NCBI GenBank assembly: GCA_050298595.1
Contig: JBNKUM010000008.1
Location: 1-64,000, forward strand
DNA: 64,000 nucleotides
From: Gammaproteobacteria bacterium
GTDB taxonomy: Bacteria > Pseudomonadota > Gammaproteobacteria > GCA-001735895
Direction of reading: 5' to 3'
This document shows, one piece after another, positions 6,278-37,668 of this stretch. Positions within the stretch are counted from its first letter, which is position 1; each line of letters opens with the position of its first letter. The notes under the pieces are model-generated. The model worked only from the letters and a program-made list of their open reading frames with translations, was not told the origin of the DNA and made no database searches. The position numbers were made by a program, and so were the translations under genes.

Positions 6278-9200
6278 CTATAACAGCACCTTTTCCATCC
6301 CACCATGAGACATCTTGCTCAGGAAGCTATCCAGCCATTTTTCACCATAGTTCAAACGCGCCAGCTCTACCACAATGTAATCGGTACTCATGCCGGTCAA
6401 TTTCTCATAACGCGACAGACCTTGCTGACAGGCCGGACAGGAGGTTAGACATTTCACTTCGGCCTTATCATCACCGGCCTGTACAACCTGCCTGGCCTGC
6501 TGCATTGATTCCAGCTTACAGTTGAATAATTGATGCGCAATATCTGGACGCGATGTGGCCAAAGTACCTGATTCACTACAGCATCTGGTGGTCAATTCAA
6601 CCGATTGACGCATCAGCTTGCTGGCTACCTCTATCGGCTGCTGGTTCTTGATGGGTGTATGACAGGGATCGTGGTAGATATATTTGGTGCCAGACTCCTG
6701 ATTGATTTCAAAGCCTTTCTCAACCAGATACTCATGAATGTCCATGATTCTTGAACCGGGAAAGATTCGTTCGAATTCATATTTCTCCAGCTGATCAAGA
6801 CAGGTACCACAGGAAACAATGATAGTTTTTATATCCAGATAGTTGAGCGTATTGGCTACACGATGAAATAGCACTCGATTCTGAGTGGTGATCTGGTGTC
6901 CTTTATCGTGATGCCCAGCTGCTATCTGAGGGTAACCACAGCATAGATAGCCTGGCGGTAATACGGTTCTGGCACCCGATTCATACAGCATCGCAATCGT
7001 AGCCAGACCGACCTGACTAAACAGTCGCTCTGAACCACAGCCGGGGAAATAGAATACCGAGTCACGATCTTCCTGTGGCACTTCCGGGTTACGGATGATA
7101 GGCACCATCTCTGGATCATCTGCCGCCAGGATCTGGCGCATGGTTTTGTCTGGTACATTGGCCTTTACCGGATTGCGCACAAAATTGACAATCTGTTGCC
7201 GAACGACCGGCTTACCGTTAGATGCGCGTGCCTGTTCTTCTCGTTTAGGGGCCATACCCAGCGATTTCAATATCATGCGCAAGGTGCGAATAGATTTAAA
7301 ACCCCATTGCAGCATCAGTTTGCGCGATAGATTAATCAGACTTGGATCGTGTAGATTCAGGAACCAGATCGCCAGTATTGCTCCCAGACTTTTGCGACGC
7401 TGTTTGTTTTTGGTTAACAGCGTTCGCATGGCAATCGTGACATCACCAAAGTCGATATTCACCGGACAGGGGGTGAGGCACTTATGGCAAGTGGTGCAAT
7501 GATCTGCTACATCGTTCAATTCGTCAAAATGTCGATGAGACAGGCCACGCCTGGTCTGCTCTTCGTACAGAAACGCTTCGATAATCTGGCCTGCGGCCAA
7601 TATCTTATTTCGCGGTGAATAAAGCAGGTTGGCGCGCGGAATATGCGTCATACATTCGGGTTTGCATTTGCCACAACGCAGACAATTCTTGATGGAATCG
7701 TTAATTTCTCCCATCTCACTGTTTTCAAGAATGAGCGCTTCCTGTTCCAGCAAGCGTAATGATGGCGTGTAGGCATTGCCTAGCCCCGAGCCTGCCAGCA
7801 ATTTCCCCTTGTTAAAATGCTGCTCTGGATCGATCTGTTGCTTGTATTTGGCGAAAGCTTCAAGTTTGTCCGTTTCCAGATACTGGATTTTGGTCAGGCC
7901 AATACCATGTTCGCCGGAGATCACTCCGTTCAACGAGGTCGCCAGTTGCATGACTTCGTCTACAATCAGATCGGCCTGATGCAGCATTTCATAATTATCA
8001 GAATGTACAGGGATATTGGTATGCACATTGCCATCACCCGCATGCATATGTAATGCAACGAACAGGCGTGAGTCTTTGACCTTTTCGTGGATTTTCGCTA
8101 ACTGATTACGCATATCTGCGTATTCAAGTCCCGAGAATATTTCATCCATCTGCTTTTTGACCTGTTGCTTATAGCTAATCCTTAATTGATTACGCAACAG
8201 GCAATCGATCACTCTATCGTCTTTTTCGAATACGAAATCCAGCTGATCAGCAAAATTACTGGCCGGACTGTCGAAGTGCGCCAGCCATTGTTCCCATTGA
8301 GCTATCTGAGCAAGCAGACGGGTAATAGCAAAGTCAATCTTGGACAGAAATAATTCATCAGGATCGGCTGATTTCTTTATCTTTTTCTGACAATCACTCA
8401 GGTATTGTTTTAGCGCAATACAGATTTCTACCTTATTGCTGATCGATTGGCGGATATTGATGACTTCTATGCCACGACTGTATTCGCTCAGATTTTCCAG
8501 CGGGATGACCACGTCTTCATTGATCTTGAACGCATTGGTATGTGCTGAAATGGCTGCGGTACGTTTTCTATCAGCCCAGAATCGTTCACGTGCTGATTTA
8601 CTCACTGCGATAAAACCTTCGGCCTGGCGTTTATTCGCAAGTTCTACAACAGCTGAACAGATACTTGCCAGTAAGTCATCATTATCAGAAATGATATCCG
8701 CCAGTAGCAGCATCTTGGGCTGATCAGAACGATTGGCTTTGGTACTGTATTGAACCGCTTTTAAGTATCTCGCATCCAGATGTTCCAGCCCCGCGAGCAA
8801 TACCCCATCGGTTTGATCAATCAGATCCTTGATTTCTACAATAGCTGCCACATCCCTGCCTGAATCCTGATTAAAGAATTCCAGACACACGGTACGGGTA
8901 AACTCAGGGATCGGGTGTAATACAAAGGTTGCTGAGGTAATCAGGCCATCGCAGCCTTCTTTCTGAATACCAGGCAAGCCCGCCAGAAACTTATCGGTAA
9001 CATCCTTGCCCAGCCCAACCTTTCGAAAGATTTGACCCGGTATGGTTAGAATCTCAGGTTTGGATAGCTGTTTACCACTACGCCTGTCGGTACGTGTAAT
9101 TTCGAACTCAACCGTTTCCTGTAGATGGATCTTGCCCATATTGTGGTTGAGGCGTTTAACCTCCAGCCAGTTGGCATCTGCGGTGACCATCTTCCAGCTC

Positions 9201-10087
9201 AGCAGGTTATCCAGCGTGGTACCCCAGATAACCGCTTTCTTACCACCGGCATTCATCGCAATGTTGCCACCAATGGTAGAAGCATCCTGTGAAGTAGGGT
9301 CCACAGCAAAAGCAAGCCTTTGCAACCCTGCTCTTTCAGACACACGTTTGGTAACTACGCCGGCCTCGGCATCTATAACACAAGCCCGGGCATCGCTACC
9401 CGGTAGATTGATCTCTCGAACCTCACCCAGTTTTTCCAGTTTTTCCAGATTGATGACTGCGGTATTCTCATACAAAGGAATGGCGCCACCGGTATAACCC
9501 GTGCCACCACCGCGAGCGATGATGGTTAAATCCAGATCGATACAGCCCTGTACCAGATCGGCCATCTCTTCTTCGGTATCTGGATGTAGCACGACCATTG
9601 GGTATTCAACGCGCCAGTCGGTGGCATCGGTAGTGTGTGAAACCCGCGCCAGCCCGCTGAAATCGACATTATCTTTTTTAGTGAGACGCGTGAGTTTGCG
9701 TTTTATTTTAACGCGTTGTTGAAGTAACCAGCTCAGCCAGTCATCGAACTCCTTGACCGTTGTGCGCGCAGCTTCGAGTAGATCAAGCGCCTGTTGATTG
9801 TCATCCGCCCGCTTTTCAATCTGTTGTAGGCGATGATTTAACGCCTGGCTTAACTGTTTACGACGCTTCTGATCGGCTAGCAGATCATCCTGCAGATAGG
9901 GATTACGTCGTACCACCCAGATATCGCCCAGCACTTCAAACAGCATACGTGCCGAGCGACCAGTTCTCCGTTCGCCACGAAGCTGGTTTAGTACATCCCA
10001 CCAGCGTTCGCCCATCAGACGATTGACTATCTCCTTATCAGAGAACGAGGTGTAGTTGTAAGGGATTTCTCGAATACGATCAGACAT
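6278..10087 (-). CDS. FAD-linked oxidase / Fe-S oxidoreductase (DUF3683-type, GlcD/GlcF-like fusion)
   Basis: [13 protein letters not shown]-terminus, [25 protein letters not shown], two CxxCxxC Fe-S motifs and CCG domains. Confidence 0.88.
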
Positions 10088-10130
10088 GCTTTGTAACTGG
10101 GCACCAAAAGCGTAGCATTATAACTGCAAT

Positions 10131-12446
10131 CTATTCGTCTTGAGTAATCTCTTTCTGTTCTTTGCTTGAAATTATATGTACGTCGCGTTGAGGGAATGGG
10201 ATTTCGATACCAGCTTCGCGGAATGCACGATCAATTTCAAAATTCATATCGCTCATGACTGTCAGGCGATTATCGACTTCTCTAATATAACAGCGTAGCT
10301 CAAAATTCAGTGAGCTATCACCGAAGGTACGGAACAGTACCCAGGGCTTGGACAGAATGGGACTTTTGGTAATCACCGACGGATGCTGGTAGGCGATATC
10401 GAGCAATATGGATTTAACCAGTTCAGTGTCGCTACCATAAGCAACACCTACCGGTAGTACTACCCGGCCAAGAGAATCGCGGAACATCCAGTTGGTAACC
10501 TGCCCCGAAATCAGCTCAGAATTAGGCACGATAACGTCAGAGCGGTCAAAGGTCTGGATCTGGGTAGAGCGTATACTAATTTTTTTTACATAACCTTCGG
10601 TTGAACCCACCATAATCCAGTCGCCGGTTTTAATTGGACGTTCAAACAGCAGAATGACACCTGAAACAAAGTTATTAACAATATTCTGTAGACCAAAACC
10701 AATACCTACCGATAATGCACCAGCGATCAGTGCCAGGTTGGCAAGTTGTACACCGGCGATAGACAAGGCGATCAGAAAACCGACAGCAACGCCAAGATAC
10801 CCTGTCAGCGAAATCATTGCCTCCTTGCTGCCCCTATCCATACGAGAACGATTGAGCCAGCTTTTATCCATGCGCCGCTTAATCCAGCCAATGATAGATA
10901 ACATCACAGCAAACGATAGCAATGCCACAATCATCTTGACGGGGACAATATTTACGGTGCCGATTTCAAATCCACCCGTGATGACATCTCTTAACTCAAG
11001 TAAGGTGGTATCCGATAGCACCCATATTTTGAGCACGGCAACGGCAAAAGTAGACCAGATGATGATGGAGAAGGTAAATCTGAACCAGATAGAACCGGGC
11101 AAGAACTCCTTTTCCTTTACTCCAATACGCTTACGAAAAACCTTTTGCCACTCATGGCGTCCTTCATCCAGGCTATCCAGAAAATCACTCCAGATGCGTA
11201 TTAAAAAGATGGTCAGGCTCCACATCAGAAAACTGCCAGTAATACCAAAAAGAATAAAATTTGATAGATTGACATAGCCCAGCCAGTCCGCGCCAAGACA
11301 AACCAGGAGCCCGAGAATAACCAGTACGCGCAGCAGATGAATATTACTTAACCCTCGGTAATAACGTAATAACCATGCCGCCCAGATCAGGTTCAGGACC
11401 AGAAGAAACAGATAAACATTACGGATCAATGCGGTAATTTGATCAGGAAAGTCATGAACCTGTAAAGCCGAATACATCAGAAAACCGGCAAACACCAGCT
11501 TGCTGAGCAACCTCAGACGACTGGCCAGCAAAAACGATATATCCTGCGGCAGACTGGTCAGTGGTTGGGCGGGCGGATAGGGATTCAGCAGTATTCGGAT
11601 AAATAGATTACCTAGCACATACATAAATAACCCAAAGACCAGCAAGGCCAGGAAATCCAGTGGCGAGCCACTGATCAACTGATAGGCATAATAAAGACTG
11701 AGACAGGAGGTAATGATCAAGGCAGCCATGTGTCTTTGAGCACAGCTAAACAGGGATAATTGAAATCGACTCAAATAACCGATTTGATTTGATTGTTGAT
11801 CAAGTCGAATACTGTTATTGAGTGCTCGCCTGATCCATAAAATTAATGCGGCAGCAACTAGTAGTAAAACTGATACATCAGGCAGGTTCTCCATCAAAGC
11901 GCTAACACCACTATCCTTTTCAATAAAAGACAGTACAGCCCGATAAATTTCTAGTGGATTGAACAGATTGTTTTTGATGTTCTGCAGCAAATTAGATTTC
12001 TTTCCCAGTAACTCTGAGGCTAATACCTGTTGTTGTTTAGTGATAACAACATCCACAATTTCATGAGCGCGCAATAACATTAATCGACAACTGGCCAGCT
12101 GCTGAGCATTACTTAACATACTCTGATTCAGACTCTGGCGCTTTTGAGTGACTTCTTTTTCTTCTGTCACCATTTGAGCGCCAAGCAATTCAAGGTCGTC
12201 AGCACTCTTATTTATCGCATGTTCATTGATTTCAATACATTCAGTGGCAACTTTTTTGACGAATATTCCCTGTTCCTGAAACTCGTTGAGTAATTGATAG
12301 TTAAGCAGTTTTTTGGGGTTGTTAACGGCTTTTTCGATGGCCTGTAATCGACCGTCAGCTTCACCAATTTTCAGGCTAAGTACAGGATCAATCGCCAGAG
12401 CTGTGCTGAACTTGATCAGGAGTAATAAGAATAAAAGGATACGCAT
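10131..12446 (-). CDS. MscS-family mechanosensitive channel (large, MscK-like)
   Basis: Signal peptide, coiled coil, multiple TM segments, GALSVGIGFGLQNIVNNFVSG, IPFPQRDVH. Confidence 0.9.
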   Translation of the reverse strand: MRILLFLLLLIKFSTALAIDPVLSLKIGEADGRLQAIEKAVNNPKKLLNYQLLNEFQEQGIFVKKVATECIEINEHAINKSADDLELLGAQMVTEEKEVTQKRQSLNQSMLSNAQQLASCRLMLLRAHEIVDVVITKQQQVLASELLGKKSNLLQNIKNNLFNPLEIYRAVLSFIEKDSGVSALMENLPDVSVLLLVAAALILWIRRALNNSIRLDQQSNQIGYLSRFQLSLFSCAQRHMAALIITSCLSLYYAYQLISGSPLDFLALLVFGLFMYVLGNLFIRILLNPYPPAQPLTSLPQDISFLLASRLRLLSKLVFAGFLMYSALQVHDFPDQITALIRNVYLFLLVLNLIWAAWLLRYYRGLSNIHLLRVLVILGLLVCLGADWLGYVNLSNFILFGITGSFLMWSLTIFLIRIWSDFLDSLDEGRHEWQKVFRKRIGVKEKEFLPGSIWFRFTFSIIIWSTFAVAVLKIWVLSDTTLLELRDVITGGFEIGTVNIVPVKMIVALLSFAVMLSIIGWIKRRMDKSWLNRSRMDRGSKEAMISLTGYLGVAVGFLIALSIAGVQLANLALIAGALSVGIGFGLQNIVNNFVSGVILLFERPIKTGDWIMVGSTEGYVKKISIRSTQIQTFDRSDVIVPNSELISGQVTNWMFRDSLGRVVLPVGVAYGSDTELVKSILLDIAYQHPSVITKSPILSKPWVLFRTFGDSSLNFELRCYIREVDNRLTVMSDMNFEIDRAFREAGIEIPFPQRDVHIISSKEQKEITQDE

Positions 12447-12499
12447 GGCGGTATCAGACCACCTGAAAAGGGAGTTTCGAAATCATTAGTAACGGATTT

Positions 12500-12527
12500 T
12501 CAATTTTGTTATTTGCTTTGCCGATAT
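12500..12527 (+). promoter_or_regulatory. Possible sigma-28 promoter
   Basis: TCAA-N16-GCCGATAT upstream of the gene at 12623. Confidence 0.4.
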
Positions 12528-12622
12528 TATGCCAGTGATCAGTCAACTAATCATTTAATCTGTAATTATGATTTATTTATATGTATTTGGACTATAAATA
12601 AATAATGGTCATAAATATTTAA

Positions 12623-14695
12623 ATGAATAATTTAACAAAAGCTTATCCCCTGTTCACTAAAGGAAGCCCTTCTGCTCAATACCAGCAGATCAGTAATTTC
12701 TGTGTGAATTATACCGAGGGTCTGCTAATCAGCCTGATGCATCTAGAAATAGATGAGGATTTTAGCGACCCACCCGAGACCTATAAAACACTACAGAAAA
12801 AGTTACAGCATCGTGAACGAACCATACGGCACGCATTTCAGTTCCAGATAGAAAAGCTGTTTTCTGACTTCAAGACTCTACGTAAAACACGATTACACGC
12901 AAACCGGGCGAGTGACTGGTTAGCAATAGGCCTGACAGGTCAAAATGCTTCCATCGTGCGAGCTAGTATCGAGACATCTAGCGAGCGTTTACATATTATC
13001 TATGAAAAACAGCTAGTGACTCTAAATGAACGTCTGAAAACACTGGTTCATCGAACAGACTACACCTATGCTGAAAATCCAATAAGCCCTGAAAATCTCT
13101 GTAACGCTTTCCTTTCATGCATTGAAGCCTTGTCTTTTAGCAGTACACAGCTATGCCAGCTTATTGGATTATATGATCGCGTACTCAGTCTGTTTCTGAC
13201 TGATTTTTATCGACAGCTTGATCTGGGCATGTACTATCTGGATATCCTGCCTGAATTAACAGATCCCGAGATATTCAAAGCGCCTTCTGCAAAAGTAAAA
13301 CCTCCTGAAATTTTCACCCCGGATATTGAAGCTAAGCGCGTTGTTGATATAAAAGAAACTCCGTCAGAGCCAACAGGTGATGAAAAGACTGATACTGAAC
13401 AAGTATCAGAAGAGTTTGATATCCCACGGGTAACCATCGAAGAAAAACCGGAACTTAATAACAAACTGGAAGAATTTTTTGCCTTAACTAGCCAGGGCTG
13501 TCTAGACTATGCCCAATTATTTGCTTCCTTTCTACATTCAACCAAAGGTTTGTTTGTAGAAAAGCAAATGAGCGATGTATTCCGCTTCCTGAACTTTTTT
13601 ACACATCTGCTGGACAATCCCAGAATATCTCAAGCGCTTAAGATTCAGCTATCACGAATTTCTCAACCATTGCTAAGACTTGTGTTGGTTGATCCATTTT
13701 TCTTTCGCAGTAGCAACCATCCAGTCAATGATTTTTTACTCTCCATCATCGATTATGAGATACGTTACGGCAACTCAAAATCCACTGCTAAACTAATATC
13801 TCCACTATTTGATCATTTGCTAGTATCAGCAAAGCTGACTCTAGATGACTTTTATCAGACCATAAATGAGTTTGAAGACTTAAAAGAGATTGAATCTAGT
13901 CGCTTACAGGAACTCAAACGCGATGACAAACAGGAACAGCAGAAAATAAAAAATGCAGTTCTCGAGCTGGTCAACCAGATTACCGAAAAACTGGAAGTAG
14001 AATCAGAAGTGCTGGCCTTTTTCTACGATGACTGGCAATTATTATTGCTACAGATAGCACGTAAAATTGGTCAAAAATCCACTGCCTTTATACAGACTGT
14101 TGAAATTACAAGAATGCTGGCCTGGAGTTTGGATGAGAATCATGAAGACAACCCAGAATACAGCCGATACTCTTTCACCAGTTTATTAAAAGCTATCGAT
14201 AAAGGATTGATTTCATTAAACTTTTCATCTGAGCACAGAAATAGAATCAGAAAACTGATGGTGCGTGAGTTTAAGAAAATCGAACATGCCAGAGACTCAA
14301 TAGTCGCTTCACCCAGAAAAGTCTTAAACAGCTTTAATTCGTTTGATCAATTCAGCGATACTGTTAATAAGTTCTCTTTGAACCTGACCGACATTACACA
14401 TATTCAACCTATTGAAGATGCTGCATTAGCCAATTTTTTAAATTCGCTGCAATATGGCACATGGGTAGAGATTAAAGAAGACCGGAAAAGTCGTTTTAAA
14501 CGAGGCAAGTTAAAATGGAAGTCTCAGGACAATAGCCGCTTCATCTTTATTGACCAGCGTGGTCATAAAATCAATGAGAGCACTCTGGATCAGATCAAAC
14601 AATACTATGCCGACGATATGATCAAGATACTGAGTAAGCCAATGCCCTTCACTTCAAAGCGGCCAACTTTGGGCCATGGATATACTGACTTCTAA
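12623..14695 (+). CDS. DUF1631-like protein
   Basis: ENPISPENLC, FFRSSNHP and C-terminal GTWVE...KLKW...FIFIDQRG motifs resemble this family. Confidence 0.65.
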   Translation: MNNLTKAYPLFTKGSPSAQYQQISNFCVNYTEGLLISLMHLEIDEDFSDPPETYKTLQKKLQHRERTIRHAFQFQIEKLFSDFKTLRKTRLHANRASDWLAIGLTGQNASIVRASIETSSERLHIIYEKQLVTLNERLKTLVHRTDYTYAENPISPENLCNAFLSCIEALSFSSTQLCQLIGLYDRVLSLFLTDFYRQLDLGMYYLDILPELTDPEIFKAPSAKVKPPEIFTPDIEAKRVVDIKETPSEPTGDEKTDTEQVSEEFDIPRVTIEEKPELNNKLEEFFALTSQGCLDYAQLFASFLHSTKGLFVEKQMSDVFRFLNFFTHLLDNPRISQALKIQLSRISQPLLRLVLVDPFFFRSSNHPVNDFLLSIIDYEIRYGNSKSTAKLISPLFDHLLVSAKLTLDDFYQTINEFEDLKEIESSRLQELKRDDKQEQQKIKNAVLELVNQITEKLEVESEVLAFFYDDWQLLLLQIARKIGQKSTAFIQTVEITRMLAWSLDENHEDNPEYSRYSFTSLLKAIDKGLISLNFSSEHRNRIRKLMVREFKKIEHARDSIVASPRKVLNSFNSFDQFSDTVNKFSLNLTDITHIQPIEDAALANFLNSLQYGTWVEIKEDRKSRFKRGKLKWKSQDNSRFIFIDQRGHKINESTLDQIKQYYADDMIKILSKPMPFTSKRPTLGHGYTDF

Positions 14696-17034: not shown

Positions 17035-17250
17035 GCTTTACTTCAAACTGCCCTGAGTTTTTCGCCGAAGGGTTGCCAGCTATGCCAATTCTCAGGAGCT
17101 GCGGACTCCCTACGGCCTGCACAATTCTCTGTGTACGCCTCACTTGTTTTGTTCGGATTCCTCGATCCTCCGCTACACGCGCAACACTCGATACGGGTGG
17201 CTGGTTAGGCCTTGCCCGACTGGGACTCTCACCCTGCAAGATGCATCAAG
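17035..17250 (-). mobile_element. Group II intron 5' (domain I) remnant, no reverse transcriptase ORF
   Basis: Minus strand reads catcttgcagggtgagagtcccagtcgggcaaggcctaaccagccacccgtatcgagtgttgcg...gaggcgtacacagagaattgtgcaggccgtaggg, which resembles the 5' region of bacterial group II introns. Confidence 0.6.
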
Positions 17251-17928: not shown

Positions 17929-18376
17929 TTTTGGAGCCCCTCTTTGAAATTTAGTCTGGTAGACTTATCGGACATAAGGCTTCGCCCAGTCGCGGTTACG
18001 CGATGGACGAATTCGCATAACGCTTAAATACGTAGAAAACTGAGGTATTTAAACGCCTCAATTTTCCAGATATGACTTTTGGAGTAAAGCTGTTTTTTTC
18101 CTGGAAAACCGAAGTTTCTTCCTTTAATTCAATAAGTTGTAAACTTTTCATCTTTTTAATCCTTATCAAATACTCCGAAATATTAACTCATTTTTACATG
18201 ATATTGGTAAATTGATTTGCATCTTTGCCCTGTCGGCTATATTCACTACCAGTGAGAATTCATCGAGAACAATAATCATGATTGATGGCTCTCCTTTAAA
18301 CCTGAATCCGCAGTTGAACATGGGGTTATGGGAAATCCCGTCGTGCCCGGCAAGGGGCACTTTTTGGTTTCCATGC

Positions 18377-18520
18377 CCAGCTATGGCTTTCTGCTTCGCT
18401 CTACCACCTACTTCCATGTAGGCGTCGGCTCTGGCATCCTGCTTCGCTCTACCATCTACCTCCATGTAGGCGTCGGCTCTGGCATCCTGCTTCGCTCTAC
18501 CACCTACCTCCATGTAGGCG
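18377..18520 (-). repeat. Tandem array of three 48-nt GGA-hairpin units
   Basis: Unit cgcctacatggaRgtaggtggtagagcgaagcaggatgccagagccga starts at 18520, 18472 and 18424 on the minus strand; no spacers. Confidence 0.9.
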
Positions 18521-18662
18521 TCCTGCTTTGATCTAACTTCGACCATTCATGGTCTTGTACCTTCTCCTGCATCTATTGCCATGTATGCCATATACATAAA
18601 ACACTGTTCGGTGCGCAAACAAACATTAACCTGGAAGGTAAATTCTCATGACACTGATTAAT

Positions 18663-20758: not shown

Positions 20759-21299
20759 AGCCCCACGAGCAGCATCATTTGATGTACCACCACAGCTGAC
20801 TTTCGACGAGAAAAGGGGAAACGAATGCATGGAATGCATAGGAGCGTGAAAAGACACATCAACTTTAATGGTTTATGAAACAGTCGGTCACCCTCTTATG
20901 CGAGAGGTCAACTGCGGAATCCAGGTTAAAAGATACATTGCGCAATTTTTGTCGTAATCGCTAACATAGCCAGTTGCTTTCATCTTGTGATCATGTACTG
21001 GAAGATATGGGTTTCTCGCGTGAGTTACTGTTACAGGGTGTTTCAGCCTGGCCCTGGCGGGTAGATGGCGAAGTGAATGAAGCCAGGGTCTATAGCATCT
21101 TTAATGAACATGAAAAAGAAGTCCGTCAAGCCATTAGCGAACTGGAAAGATATCGTGACCGTGAACTATCTGATATTGGCATTGTCAGATGCGATATTGA
21201 GCCTATCGTACGTAATGGTCGTACTGACTCTGTTGCAGCGATCAATGATTTGGATCTGAAAGAACCTCAGCCAATAGCTGCATAAGAATTCCTCCCCTT

Positions 21300-25041: not shown

Positions 25042-25531
25042 ATTCCATAATGGCATAGATGTGTTGCCGGGCGCGTAATAAGACCTGAAAATCACTCATC
25101 TTCACCGGCTCGAAAACCAGTGCAAGATCTGCACTCATATCGATCAGTGACTGTTCCGCTGCAGCATGATCCCTAAAGTTAATACTGAAGGTTACGTTTG
25201 GATGTTTATACCGGTAGGCTGCAGTTTGCTGTGGCAGAAAAGAGATTAATTATGACCGCGTCGAATACCTGATAAGTCGGCTATCTGACTTTTCACCCGC
25301 TCTATATCCAAAAGCTGCATGCGGATGTGATGTATGTAGATCTCACCCGCCGCCGATAATCGACCTCCAGTTGGCAGGCGTTCAAAAAATATCTGCACCC
25401 AGATCTTCTTCAATAGCCAATATTCAGCGATTTAAAGCAGATGAGGTAATCGCCAGGCTATCTGCTGCTTTGCGAATAGAACCCGCTCGAGCTACAGCAT
25501 CAACAAGTCGTAAGGTTAACAGGTTTCTCAC
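25035..25531 (-). pseudogene. LysR-family regulator, degraded
   Basis: MRNLLTLRLVDAVARAGSIRKAADSLAITSSALNR*ILAIEEDLG, then frameshift to FERLPTGGRLSAAGE. Confidence 0.8.
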
Positions 25532-33223: not shown

Positions 33224-33273
33224 GTACCTCCGCCCCCTTTAACTTCCGCTTTAACTTCCGCTTTATCTTCCAT

Positions 33274-33846
33274 TTAACTGTCCGAGTTGACGCGATTGTT
33301 ATAAAACACATCCTTTATATTTCTCTCAATTGAAACTAAATAACCACCCAAACCTACGAGCAAAACCAACCAGACTGCATACATTCCCCATTCAGCTGGA
33401 TTAGCAGTACTATTGTATAAATGATTGGCTATCGGAATAGCCGATGCTAAGAATATAAAATTTGTAACCCATAACCTGTTTAAATTCATAAACTCTTTAG
33501 GGCATGTTGATAGGTATCTGTCCCATACTTTTTCACCATCTTCCGTAGTATCTTGTTCATTCAGGAACATCCTAATTCTCTTGACGGCAAATTCTCCGCC
33601 AAGAATATAAAAGTCAAATAATACAGCGACCAAAGGCGCTATGTACAAAAGACCGAAGATAAAGAAAATACCATCATCTGATTCTAAGTTTAAAAGTGTT
33701 GCTGCCACACTAAACAAGCCAATGACAAATGTGAATTTTAGCCTAACATAGGATGCTCGGCGATCCTGTTGCTTTAGCTTCTCTTCGCGCAAGTGAGCTA
33801 TAAACTCAGAGCAAGCCCTTTTTTCTTCTTTTTCTTCGGTATCCAT
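33274..33846 (-). CDS. Uncharacterised four-TM membrane protein
   Basis: Four hydrophobic segments; ATG directly follows the U32 stop codon. Confidence 0.75.
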   Translation of the reverse strand: MDTEEKEEKRACSEFIAHLREEKLKQQDRRASYVRLKFTFVIGLFSVAATLLNLESDDGIFFIFGLLYIAPLVAVLFDFYILGGEFAVKRIRMFLNEQDTTEDGEKVWDRYLSTCPKEFMNLNRLWVTNFIFLASAIPIANHLYNSTANPAEWGMYAVWLVLLVGLGGYLVSIERNIKDVFYNNRVNSDS

Positions 33847-34815
33847 TCAAGTCACCTCATTACTTAATAGAAAACTTGTTTTAGAATCATATCTATCAGG
33901 CACAACCGATTTAGAGTGTTTGAAATTTTCGACAATACATCTCATGTCTCCATTATATTGAGAAGAAAGATATGACTGGACACTTTGGAATATTAGCTCC
34001 GTTTCAAATGATCGACCAACTATTTTAAAAATCGGATCGAATTGGAGGTATTTCTCAATATTTCGTGGGCTTATATAATTTGTTTTTCCTATCCCTCTGT
34101 TATTCATGTGTGACCGACATGGTTGACCTAGATACCTATCCTTCTCCGAGTCAGTAATAAAATCCCGAATAGCGGACTCGATGCTATAGTTTTGAGCGTC
34201 TAGTTGATCATTCCTTCTATGGGGGCAATATTTTATACAGCCTTCATTGATCATTATTTTTAATTTAACTGACTTATACTTATCTATTAATTTGTTAATA
34301 CTGATAATTTTTGGAACATCATGATTTAAATCCGGCGGCAAAAGGAATATCGTCACCCCCATATCCACCAGTTCTTCTACATCAACTAACGAATCGATAT
34401 CTATGTATACTGAGTTTTGAATGTCAACTTCAACTGGCCAAAGCGTTTTAGCCTGCCTAAGAAGCTCTTTACTTCCTACCGTTACTGAGTTTATGCCATG
34501 CCTCAGTAAACCAGAGACATAATCAACCATAGTATCTGTTGCTAACCCATGAAAATTCATCAATAAATTGGTTTTAATACCTAAATTTCTAGCATCACTA
34601 ATCAGATTTATAATTTCTTGATCATATCTGACATGATCAAAAACGTAATCATCTCCATTTTTCACTATATAATCTTTTATCTTTGGTCTCCGCCCTGAAC
34701 CCATAACGTGGGGGTTCCCGGCGAAATATATTTCCTCAACATGTTCACTTAAGCCAGATAAAACTAGCTTACTGATGAAGTTCTTGTCTCCATTGTATGG
34801 AATAGAAAATTTCAT
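33847..34815 (-). CDS. U32 peptidase-family-like (probable Fe-S) protein
   Basis: EEIYFAG...GSGR, NEGCIKYCPH, a later Cys, FKIVGRS. Confidence 0.7.
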   Translation of the reverse strand: MKFSIPYNGDKNFISKLVLSGLSEHVEEIYFAGNPHVMGSGRRPKIKDYIVKNGDDYVFDHVRYDQEIINLISDARNLGIKTNLLMNFHGLATDTMVDYVSGLLRHGINSVTVGSKELLRQAKTLWPVEVDIQNSVYIDIDSLVDVEELVDMGVTIFLLPPDLNHDVPKIISINKLIDKYKSVKLKIMINEGCIKYCPHRRNDQLDAQNYSIESAIRDFITDSEKDRYLGQPCRSHMNNRGIGKTNYISPRNIEKYLQFDPIFKIVGRSFETELIFQSVQSYLSSQYNGDMRCIVENFKHSKSVVPDRYDSKTSFLLSNEVT

Positions 34816-34916
34816 AGTGTTTTATAACAGCTTGATTATGTTACACGCACGAATATTGTGATATGCCGAATTATGTTCTCATTCATAGATAAAATAAACA
34901 ATGACCGCTCATGGCA

Positions 34917-35086
34917 CAGGCTGTGTGAAAACTCGCTTCAATTTGATGACACCAAAAACATTTCCCACTACGGGGTAATTTTTCAGGATTATTTAGAACT
35001 CAATTACCACAAATCACAAAAAATTAATCCTATATAAGCCCGCATATTCCACTTGAAAAATTGGAAAATAGTTTTCACACAGCCTG
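34917..35086. mobile_element. 170-bp MITE with IS1182-like ends
   Basis: Perfect 17-bp TIR caggctgtgtgaaaact / agttttcacacagcctg; no ORF. Confidence 0.8.
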
Positions 35087-35145
35087 GGTACCAACTTGCC
35101 TATTGCGCCGCACAATGCAATGACAGCTTTACCAACCCAGTTTTT

Positions 35146-35207
35146 TAAAAAGCTGAGCGACGATAGGAGCGGAGCTTTTTCGGTCAACTGGATGCTACTT
35201 TTAAAAA
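35146..35207 (-). other. Truncated attC-like site
   Basis: Minus strand ttttaaaagtagcatccagttgaccgaaaaagctccgctcctatcgtcgctcagcttttt directly after a stop codon; distal arm lost. Confidence 0.45.
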
Positions 35208-35211
35208 GGTC

Positions 35212-35415
35212 CTATCTTTTGATCACAAAAGGTAGGGCGATAAAAACACCCCCTATAATGACAAGGATGAACTCATTTGAGATGAAATAAGGAAATAGCA
35301 TTAAGTCTATTCCGCTTAATAAAGGAATGATGGCCTTTTGCTTTTTCCCATAAATAAAGTACCCAAGTCCTATTGATCCAAATAATACTGCCCACATTAA
35401 TGTTGACGTATTCAT
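35212..35415 (-). CDS. Small membrane protein (67 aa), cassette-like
   Basis: MNTSTLMWAVLFGSIGLGYFIYGKKQ...FPYF, located between two attC-like sites. Confidence 0.75.
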   Translation of the reverse strand: MNTSTLMWAVLFGSIGLGYFIYGKKQKAIIPLLSGIDLMLFPYFISNEFILVIIGGVFIALPFVIKR

Positions 35416-35430
35416 TAATAATTTTTCTTC

Positions 35431-35539
35431 ACATAACGCAGCAAGCAACTGAGGGGGGGGGGTAATTGGTTGCTTTTTTGCGTCTTTTTACAAAAAATAA
35501 GACAGTTTACGGAGGTTAGATTAACTGGCTTTATTAGAA
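35431..35539 (-). other. Degenerate long attC site
   Basis: Ends ...gttgcttgctgcGTTATGT 15 nt before the ATG; internal ttttttgtaaaaagacgcaaaaaa hairpin. Confidence 0.6.
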
Positions 35540-35739
35540 CACTTTTTCAGACGATACTATACCGCCAGGCATAGCTTTCCTCCATTTTTTAACTTTTGAC
35601 TTTGTAAAGCATACATACTGCCCTTTGATTGTAAGTTAATGTGTTAGAACATGAGCAATTCCTATCGTATTTTTCACAGGATTTTCACAAGCCCCGTTCA
35701 GACTTTTGGTAAGAGTTAAATTCAGACGGGAGAAGTTGT

Positions 35740-36495: not shown

Positions 36496-37125
36496 TCAGG
36501 CGTCGTTGAAAGCTTCCACAGTGTACTTCCTGTAAAGCTCAATGACCTTATGTACATAGATCTCAGTTTCGTCAAAAGGCGGGATCTTGTTTCCGTATTT
36601 TAGTACTGCTTTTTCACCCGCATTGTAACTGGCGAGGGCCAGTTGCAGGTCGTTATCAAAACGCACTAGCAAATCCTTAAGATACCGGGTACCACCGGAA
36701 AGATTATCAACTGGGTCATACCGATTCGCGACACCGTAGCGCCTGGCCGTATCTGGCATCAACTGCATCAATCCGACTGCGCCTGAGCTCGACACAGCGG
36801 TCGGATCATAGGCTGATTCAGTGGAGATGACCGCATGAACCAGGCTTTCGGGTAAACCCTGGCTGCGTGCAGCCTCCGCGATCATTAAGGCGAATCGCTG
36901 GCGGTTTTTTTTCATATTTTGATAATCGACTTTCGGCTCACGCCACCCCTTGCGTGATGGTAAAAACAACCGGTAGCCAGAGTGTGGAGGTTTATTAGTC
37001 AGATGAACAAGGCCTTTGTTGTCGACAAACTTATAAATATCGGCATAGGTAGCAGGTGAAGCGGCAGCTGTGCATAAAATCAGAAAAACAACAGCGGGCA
37101 GGACAGATAAACGAGAAGTGCACAT
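36496..37125 (-). CDS. Lytic transglycosylase (SLT domain) with DUF4124-like N-terminus
   Basis: IYKFVDNKGLVHLTN, AVISTES, GAVGLMQLMP, ASYNAGE, IPPFDET. Confidence 0.9.
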   Translation of the reverse strand: MCTSRLSVLPAVVFLILCTAAASPATYADIYKFVDNKGLVHLTNKPPHSGYRLFLPSRKGWREPKVDYQNMKKNRQRFALMIAEAARSQGLPESLVHAVISTESAYDPTAVSSSGAVGLMQLMPDTARRYGVANRYDPVDNLSGGTRYLKDLLVRFDNDLQLALASYNAGEKAVLKYGNKIPPFDETEIYVHKVIELYRKYTVEAFNDA

Positions 37126-37228
37126 GCTGGGATTATAATTAAAAATGGCTCTGTAGCAAAACCAAGAGCAAGAGTTAATATTGACACCCATACATATTCC
37201 AGCATCAACCAGGCGATATATTTTTCAA

Positions 37229-37574
37229 CCTAGAATTCGCAGTTAGACGAGTTGTAGTGAGTTTGAGGTGGTGTAGATCAAGGAGTTACAGGGCTTCCGC
37301 GTCCTGCTCTCGCCCCTTACCTATATCCCTATAGGCAACGCAGAGATACGTCGCCGCAAACGTGCAATTCAGCTCATAGCGGGATTCACCTGTTGGGTTT
37401 TCAGCATGGATGCCGTTATTACGCGAATGCATGGACGCCTACATGGACGTAGGTGGTAGGGCGAAGCAGGAAGCCAGAGCCGATGCATAGGAGCGTGAAA
37501 ATACAAACTGACTAAGATCGTTAACGAAACTGAAGGTTACCCACTAATACGAGCGGTCAACTGCGGAATCCAGG
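37229..37574. mobile_element. 346-bp MITE with IS1380-like ends
   Basis: TIR cctagaattcgcagtt / aactgcggaatccagg, 5-bp TSD TTCAA (37224-37228 and 37575-37579); the right part resembles 20820-20925. Confidence 0.8.
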
Positions 37575-37668
37575 TTCAATAGCACCCAGAATGATTATCT
37601 CACCGCTATTCCTGGCGAAGTGTAAGTAGCAACTGCCCGGGGCGCCCCCCTTGTCTTTACTACAATGG

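Follow-up and report, generated by a model that had tools for sequence, protein, structure and literature searches.

A 48-nt GGA-hairpin module with matched empty and filled sites is probably a small mobile insertion unit of Gammaproteobacteria

Pneumococcal BOX elements contain variable tandem boxB units, bacterial interspersed mosaic elements (BIMEs) are mosaics of motifs, and REPs, the repetitive extragenic palindromes, are lineage-specific. Insertion of a lone BOX or BIME unit into an unrelated repeat or gene is not known. Cyanobacteria carry small dispersed repeats of 21-27 nt, reportedly described by Elhai et al. (2008, Genome Res 18:1484), which lie nested in other repeats and the mobility of which was inferred from presence/absence at corresponding sites. 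REPs have GTAG 5' of their hairpin and are cleaved at a CT dinucleotide, according to excerpts of PMC3479197. For TwoAYGGAY (Rfam RF01731, grouped in clan CL00106 with rsmX and RsmY), excerpts of PMC4333381 and bioRxiv 10.64898/2026.09.22.753630 propose both a role as CsrA sponge and a mobile-element-like expansion. The present analysis concerns a 48-nt tandem array in a gammaproteobacterial draft genome (G000; 5.49 Mb, 119 contigs). The window, i.e. the whole stretch of DNA that was analysed, comprises 64,000 nt of contig C8 (JBNKUM010000008.1, nt 1-64,000). The array probably consists of three copies of a discrete mobile insertion module of 48 nt, non-coding and non-autonomous, that is widespread in Gammaproteobacteria.

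On the strand that carries its GGA motifs (the GGA strand), the unit reads ACG-stem-ANGGAN-stem-GG-TAGRGCGAAGC-AGGAWGCCMGAGCCG, beginning with ACG and ending with GAGCCG in an alignment of 105 distinct copies. Nine contexts were found in which an exact block of 47-48 nt is present or absent in otherwise matching DNA, and the junctions are ambiguous by 1-3 nt only (A, GA or GAC). The most extensive series (pair i) comes from the centre of MITE-1, a family of MITEs (miniature inverted-repeat transposable elements). Here, 24 anchor pairs enclose 2-3 nt in seven cases (GG in four) and 50 nt, equal to one module, in five; the others hold one partial module, seven chains of 77-166 nt and four unrelated pairings. 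The comparison of nt 20822 with nt 37424 made in the first-pass annotation, a reading of the window by its letters, is real, and the insert counts 47 nt relative to that empty copy (GGA between ATGCAT arms) and 48 nt relative to the four of seven empty copies that have GG. In the left part of the same family (pair v) the module is located between ...GTGAGC and AGGACGCGG at C36:1689 and C49:37257, and dozens of empty copies, the window's included, are among the matches listed. MITE-2 provides pair ii, two paralogous segments of contig C21 with near-identical flanks that differ by the module block. Two further pairs were recovered by BLAST: contigs C51, C56 and C100 are filled where C70 (nt 286-345) is empty, the match being 95% identical along 60 nt (pair iii), and C22 is filled where C86 is empty (pair iv). 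The raw BLAST tally (46 of 67) was set aside, as modules that align with each other inflate it.

The remaining hosts are of other kinds. An element of about 150 nt resembling TwoAYGGAY is filled in three copies and empty in three, the block lying in the loop of caaatggc^AGGGATgccatttg (pair vi). In Ectopseudomonas mendocina the host is a REP-like palindrome with six empty copies (...TCGCGGCT|AAAGCCCCTCCC; pair vii); 11 of the 14 modules of the genome analysed continue into AAAGC, where the outer right arm of the palindrome starts, and most are preceded by ...CGC(G/C)GCT. Two insertions lie in protein-coding genes. An IS5-like transposase gene on contig C115 (pair viii) encodes DTTV[HDCKDAGGRAKQEARA]EEKNITYPTD, with 16 additional residues in frame, and the ortholog in the relative G011 (79% identity) is devoid of exactly these 16. 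The BREX-1 methyltransferase gene pglX of a Salmonella plasmid (pair ix) similarly encodes FNA[DDCMDAGGRATQDAKA]DNRYQ, again 16 residues in frame, as against FNADNRYQ in the homologue of an Escherichia coli plasmid; pglX of a Moellerella plasmid carries the same module, as judged by DNA match only. In both translated insertions the module has the same strand and frame. One hairpin subtype recurs in several host contexts, which points to separate insertions in addition to mere spread along with a host repeat.

Several details of these hosts were recorded in passing. The transposase gene occupies nt 586-1395 of locus L185 (G000:C115:54500-56500), and a second open reading frame (ORF; nt 1389-1760) continues in another frame. 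The pglX module maps to nt 2501-2549 of locus L192 (NZ_CP133280.1, nt 9117-14165), from an IncR plasmid of Salmonella, and the surrounding loop region also lacks 10 residues present in the E. coli plasmid homologue. The TwoAYGGAY-like family (about 150 nt) has a basal stem and two hairpins with AGGGAU and UGGAA loops, and is present in at least eight copies; loci in this genome are C69:7100-7420, C101:116000-116320, C89:19980-20300, C21:50880-51220, C80:2950-3290 and C109:22150-22500. Only one copy of the family registers with RF01731, at 30.3 bits against a cut-off of 43, so that Rfam misses it.

The nine precise pairs, drawn from this genome, its relatives, Ectopseudomonas and enterobacterial plasmids, lend strong support to the ultra-small mobile unit that the first-pass annotation had proposed. 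Its description of that unit as a parasite of MITEs is too narrow, as REP-like palindromes and TwoAYGGAY-like elements, along with two protein genes, are hosts too. Insertion into hairpin loops, likewise proposed, applies to two of the nine pairs. The constant feature is instead the base after the insert (written ACG...GCCG), which is A in all nine, usually within (A)GGA: a GGA is found at or beside the site in six pairs. The sites read C^AGGA or C^AGGGA in four pairs, ^GA in four and ^AAA in one. Seen from the C-rich strand, T always precedes the insert (9/9), as part of TCCT in four of the pairs.

Sites of this kind are present in GGA loops of other hairpin repeats, and the boundary between hairpin part and tail within the module itself, GAAGC^AGGA, matches the preferred site. 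From sequence we infer that the 86-nt centre of the C101 copy, like similar chains, consists of one module nested in another. Insertion at the internal GAAGC^AGGA would generate nested chains in the order hairpin part, hairpin part, tail, tail, and near-identical tandem copies such as those of the window would result from slippage, or from insertions made repeatedly at the module's end.

The unit has three parts, namely the hairpin, GG-TAGRGCGAAGC and AGGAWGCCMGAGCCG, and its length agrees with the 48-nt period of the array. It can also be divided into sub-units, a 33-nt hairpin part and a 15-nt tail, which repeat in many orders. Its ends (ACG... and ...GCCG) do not form an inverted repeat, and five of the six frames are without a stop codon, as read from the sequence. 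The 105 distinct copies, seeded from a fixed 19-nt pattern, were built into a covariance model, R1, and conservation in their alignment extends past the search pattern. The stem covaries: 84 cells are changed on both sides of a pair, compared with 25.1 +/- 3.4 in shuffles (0/500 reach 84) and 9-21 in slid controls, and stem pair 16-26, for example, is GC in 55 copies, AU in 23 and CG in 17. The loop is ANGGAN in 92 of the 105. Among the five core stem pairs, G-U (G-T) wobbles on the GGA strand outnumber A-C mismatches by 20 to 5, which together with the loop pattern indicates that the structure is read on this strand, in RNA or in single-stranded DNA. The hairpin is the only stable structure when the array is folded (z -2.0 as RNA, -0.8 as DNA). 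Each unit has three GGA motifs, one in the loop and two in the tail, and a variant with a second GGA hairpin exists (GCAAC-GCAGGAGCG-GTTGC).

A genome-wide search for the unit, suggested in the first-pass annotation, gave 93 matches to R1 in this genome at E<=1, of which 73 are strong (E<1e-3), as well as further empty/filled pairs. BLAST with a single unit finds 27 places at E<=1e-3, many of which match the first 26 nt only and continue into other small hairpins. Among 150 other gammaproteobacterial families (one genome each, at least 90% complete; stricter filters, 37 candidates scored per genome), R1 matches were present in 26 at E<=1e-5, with 1-21 copies each. An exact scan for the 19-nt core, using one genome per species, recovered at least 119 loci where 26 are expected by chance. 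Nearly all of the core matches listed belong to named Gammaproteobacteria of many genera, including Pseudomonas, Ectopseudomonas, Stutzerimonas, Shewanella, Pseudoalteromonas, Marinobacterium, Thiohalomonas, Endozoicomonas, Sedimenticola and members of the Methylococcaceae. The complete genome of Ectopseudomonas mendocina has 14 R1 matches. Within the genus of the present genome, 10 of 12 genomes matched a 1.6-kb query, and the array part was matched in all 10. A phage collection gave no module match. Literature searches on CsrA with repeats or MITEs, on sponges with transposable elements and on nested REP/RAYT insertion retrieved no description of the module, although figures S26-S27 of bioRxiv 10.64898/2026.09.22.753630 may show related variants; a full-text search with an 11-nt core of the module listed unrelated papers only, none of them on bacteria.

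In the relative G001, which has its own tandem array of 2.5 modules, module matches also recur about every 1.6 kb along C62:22926-30059 (nt 25099, 26772, 28387 and 29996), which suggests that the module is carried by a larger unit repeated in tandem.

Within the window, the first-pass annotation located the module accurately. Its three tandem units span nt 18378-18521, in agreement with Tandem Repeats Finder (period 48; nt 18380-18522, 3.0 copies, 93% matches, score 251), and GCAGG|A precedes the array, as described. The motif gcAGGAtgc was correctly assigned to two of the three units (GCAGGATGC), the third having GCAGAAAGC. The single copy given as nt 37436-37482 was found at nt 37435-37482, and the diverged inverted copy placed at about nt 37292-37335 corresponds to nt 37292-37336, albeit with a score of only 14.2 bits (E 0.6). 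This diverged unit holds another insertion site, empty here and filled in two other MITE-1 copies. The features of the window are collected in Table 1, with the array units in family register. The two unit types leading into the array are found again in chains at other places in the genome, and the terminal repeat word of MITE-1 has 114 genome matches at up to four mismatches.

Table 1. Modules and module-bearing repeats in the window (R1, covariance model of the module; TIR, terminal inverted repeat)
Feature	Position (nt)	Strand	Form	Basis
Module copy 1 of array	18378..18425	-	hairpin GCCTAC-ATGGAA-GTAGG, degenerate tail GCAGAAAGCCATAGCTG	R1 match C8:18373-18429, 51 bits
Module copy 2 of array	18426..18473	-	full form with GCAGGATGCC	R1 match 18421-18477, 64.8 bits
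Module copy 3 of array	18474..18521	-	full form	R1 match 18469-18525, 67.5 bits
Two further unit types, leading into array on GGA strand	18522..18560	-	GTACAAGACCATGAATGGTCGAAG, TTAGATCAAAGCAGG	read from sequence
MITE-1 TIR, degenerate, adjoining array	18299..18319	.	aacctgaatccgcagttgaac	comparison with family terminal repeat
MITE-1 right half, empty site	20822..20928	+	host hairpin ATGCAT-GGA-ATGCAT at 20825-20839	
MITE-1 full copy, 350 nt	37227..37576	.	TIRs 37227-37248 and 37556-37576	
Single module in central GGA hairpin of MITE-1	37435..37482	+		R1 match 37431-37487, 69.3 bits; empty/filled series
Diverged inverted module-like unit, part of MITE-1 itself	37292..37336	-	CCTATAGGGATATAGG + TAAGGGGCGAGAGC + AGGACGCGGAAGCC	R1 14.2 bits, E 0.6

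The array itself could not be paired with an empty site from the relative G011, the synteny of which breaks at about nt 18612. An ORF that runs through the array (nt 18166-18546, 126 aa) was rejected as spurious; it exists because five of the six module frames are without stops. A reading as a type III toxin-antitoxin repeat array was likewise given up, as arrays are rare and a toxin gene does not follow. Elsewhere in the window, a group II intron fragment (RF02005, D1-D4-6, 52.4 bits) lies at nt 17095-17229 on the minus strand, 1.1 kb from the array, and a 12-nt tandem repeat (CTTTAACTTCCG, 4.0 copies, score 66) at nt 33237-33284. Two stretches of repeated DNA, nt 34350-35681 and nt 37014-37650, show a summed contig depth 5-30 times that of neighbouring bins in sequencing runs X1 and X3; the second of these is the MITE.

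A further, less precise case is found at a csrA locus of this genome (locus L128, G000:C91:7656-10811). On its minus strand (about nt 1200-960), after csrA and tRNA-Ser(GCT), lies a candidate Rsm-like small RNA (sRNA). Its core is conserved in the relative G010 (fold z -4.6 there, -4.8 here), it has an upstream palindrome (caaacttattccagataagtttg), and inspection by eye as well as the folds shows a terminator-like hairpin. A simple scan of the locus found no sigma-70-like promoter site, and the genome holds no paralogue of the sRNA. The first GGA loop in G010 belongs to the hairpin ctaattcg-TCTGGAA-cgaattag; in the present genome this loop is replaced by a module-containing chain of about 103 nt, which makes it a tenth, imprecise example. 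In G001 the 2.5 tandem modules are fused to the 3' part of this sRNA. The module of genome G153 sits inside a duplicated 3' end of tRNA-Ser. At that locus (L177, G153:C41:8400-9700, nt 560-1010) two decayed duplicates of the tRNA-Ser 3' end follow csrA and tRNA-Ser, both interrupted at atccctctctc^tccgcca by module chains of different length.

Movement of the module would depend on an enzyme acting in trans on single-stranded, hairpin-folded DNA, and the leading candidate is a Y1/HUH transposase, although we regard this assignment as doubtful. In its favour are the asymmetric ends, the subterminal hairpin, an apparent lack of target duplication and what looks like a short fixed word beside the insert. 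In addition, Y1_Tnp genes are present in all 26 module-positive genomes but in 75 of the 124 module-negative ones (Fisher p = 1e-5; among the module-negative, Y1-positive genomes counted are G050 and G128, which are unpublished). The cut at CT reported for REPs, as worded in the excerpts of PMC3479197, fits only one junction here, which counts against such an enzyme. The present genome is itself unusually rich in Y1_Tnp, with matches at 26 places. Several of these encode proteins resembling REP-associated tyrosine transposases (RAYTs; 206-281 aa), many with internal stops, and each RAYT-like gene has its own flanking inverted repeats (e.g. GGGGTCAGGCCTTACATT).

A number of observations weigh against a mobile module, or against this means of moving it. 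Several of the filled sets could each stem from one insertion that spread with its host repeat, as is likely for the Ectopseudomonas REP composite, and independent events would then be fewer than copies; moreover, deletion of the block looks identical to its insertion when two copies are compared. The conservation of the tail is overstated, the seeds of R1 having been selected by pattern. Genome size and kinship confound the co-occurrence with Y1 genes, and the search for a linked HUH transposase found no linkage, as only 1 of the 26 Y1_Tnp matches here has a module within 500 nt and the RAYT-like genes are flanked by repeats that differ from it. There is a single hairpin rather than one per end, and no bias between leading and lagging strand (22-23 vs 29-30 loci, by local GC skew); insertion of the IS200/IS605 type would predict one, but the comparison is blurred by modules riding inside MITEs. 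Alternatively, blocks could be gained and lost with no dedicated mobility, through gene conversion, template switching or replication slippage where similar hairpin repeats share short GGA/GA homologies; such a process would be akin to the variable boxB units of BOX elements or the motif mosaics of BIMEs. The 1-3 nt shared between junctions and module ends (A, GA, GAC), the many orders in which the units, the 33-nt part and the 15-nt tail repeat, and the plain head-to-tail arrangement of the window array all suit such a process. It is nonetheless improbable, as the same exact 48-nt boundaries occur in nine unrelated contexts and recur in distant genera with unrelated host repeats, two of the contexts are unique protein-coding genes without a nearby module to copy, and one to three shared bases are very few for repeated, identical template switches. 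The two gene insertions already argue, too, against all filled copies being ancestral fusions with no case in unique DNA. That the threefold array is an assembly artefact, the module being real and its true copy number different, is highly improbable. The Logan contigs of X1 and X3, possibly from the source sample, do break within the array and none bridges it (those of X3 stop at nt 18442 and resume at nt 18493, that of X1 begins at nt 18473; joints at nt 37283-37553 derive from other MITE copies and were set aside). The units, however, differ by point changes (93% matches), which is unusual for collapsed or inflated repeats, and G001 carries an array of its own.

A different question is whether the module is kept as a portable RNA unit that binds CsrA/RsmA, a possibility compatible with mobility which, judged from sequence, we regard as doubtful. 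The ANGGAN hairpin and the single-stranded tail with GCAGGAGG and GCAGGAWGC, about 24 nt apart, would suit one CsrA dimer, and arrays or insertions into RNAs with GGA hairpins would raise sponge capacity. A resemblance to consensus CsrA sites is seen both in the hairpin (e.g. CUGCAUGGAUGCAG) and in the tail, with its motifs GCAGGAGG and GCAGGAUGC. The retention of the loop and the excess of G-U over A-C described above are consistent with an RNA of this kind, as are the two csrA genes of this genome, the module chain carried by the candidate sRNA with its GGA hairpins and terminator-like stem, the position of the sole module of G153 about 415 nt from csrA, and the modules in the AGGGAU loop of TwoAYGGAY-like elements. 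AYGGAY loops have been proposed as CsrA sites (PMC4333381, in excerpt), and TwoAYGGAY elements as multivalent Csr/Rsm sponges with a mobile-element-like expansion (bioRxiv 10.64898/2026.09.22.753630, in excerpt). Against this, modules between co-directional genes show no strand preference (11 sense, 10 antisense, by crude ORF calls), the G153 copy is on the strand opposite csrA, the stretch that follows csrA and tRNA-Ser is an insertion hotspot in general, and two of the 26 module-positive genomes, G147 (100% complete) and G149 (95% complete), have no CsrA match. A GGA in a loop nearly suffices for CsrA, which leaves the near-constant TAGRGCGAAGC and GAGCCG unexplained. No Rfam Csr/Rsm family reached threshold, the best being rsmX at 18.5 bits (cut-off 56) beside the module at the csrA locus, and none matched in the window, either in the gathering scan or in a scan of nt 18250-18650 at E<=10. 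The combined proposition, that the module moves within and between gammaproteobacterial genomes and plasmids as a portable CsrA-binding domain, would on these sequence data be unlikely. If true, the cargo of such a mobile element would be an RNA hairpin that binds protein, and landing in the GGA loops of sponge RNAs, in untranslated regions or in frame within genes would rewire Csr/Rsm control.

Considered as a mobile insertion module, the unit would set a lower size limit for bacterial transposable units; mobile DNA of such small size that combines exact boundaries with a recognisable target and a distribution across orders has hardly been documented. The module also has consequences for annotation, in the form of spurious ORFs (such as nt 18166-18546), 16 residues added to real proteins and broken short-read assemblies. 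For TwoAYGGAY, it gives a testable link between two questions, namely how the elements multiply and whether they titrate CsrA.

By the Rfam model the module is not RF01731. It shares with TwoAYGGAY the hairpin loops of AYGGAY type, the many copies per genome in Pseudomonadota and the association with REPs and other repeats. While TwoAYGGAY has two AYGGAY hairpins on one basal stem, the module consists of one hairpin and a constant unpaired tail, has no basal stem, and inserts into TwoAYGGAY-like elements rather than being one. No module attains the gathering score of RF01731 (43 bits): there is no match in the window and none in nt 18250-18650 at E<=10, the only match in the genome (30.3 bits) is on a host element, and 20 loci of other genera gave none. 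The several GGA motifs, some in hairpin loops, recall CsrB, RsmY and RsmZ. Similarity to REPs, or to REP doublets forming hairpins (REPINs) and their RAYTs, is seen in the short imperfect intergenic hairpins, the adjacent GTAG, the Y1 genes in the genome and the nested or clustered arrangements. In a strict sense the module is not a REP, as its GTAG is 3' of the hairpin on the GGA strand (CTAC precedes the hairpin on the other strand), modules do not flank RAYT-like genes, and its sequence is common across orders. Nor is it a MITE, having no terminal inverted repeats and only 1-3 ambiguous junction bases; the MITEs are its hosts. With elements derived from IS200/IS605 it has in common the lack of inverted ends, a subterminal hairpin and, apparently, insertion beside a short fixed word without target duplication, but it differs in having one hairpin instead of two, a length of 48 nt, no strand bias and no partner insertion sequence that could be found.

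On our comparison, the module appears to work most like the cyanobacterial small mobile repeats and the tandem units of BOX. The former are reportedly also mobile, too small to encode anything and nested in other repeats, although they belong to another phylum, are unrelated in sequence and lack the GGA loop. BOX and BIME are likewise intergenic and built of modules, with one short unit present in a variable number of tandem copies. The module is set apart from all of these by its own sequence, its GGA-centred target and an occurrence that spans gammaproteobacterial orders and extends to genes on plasmids.
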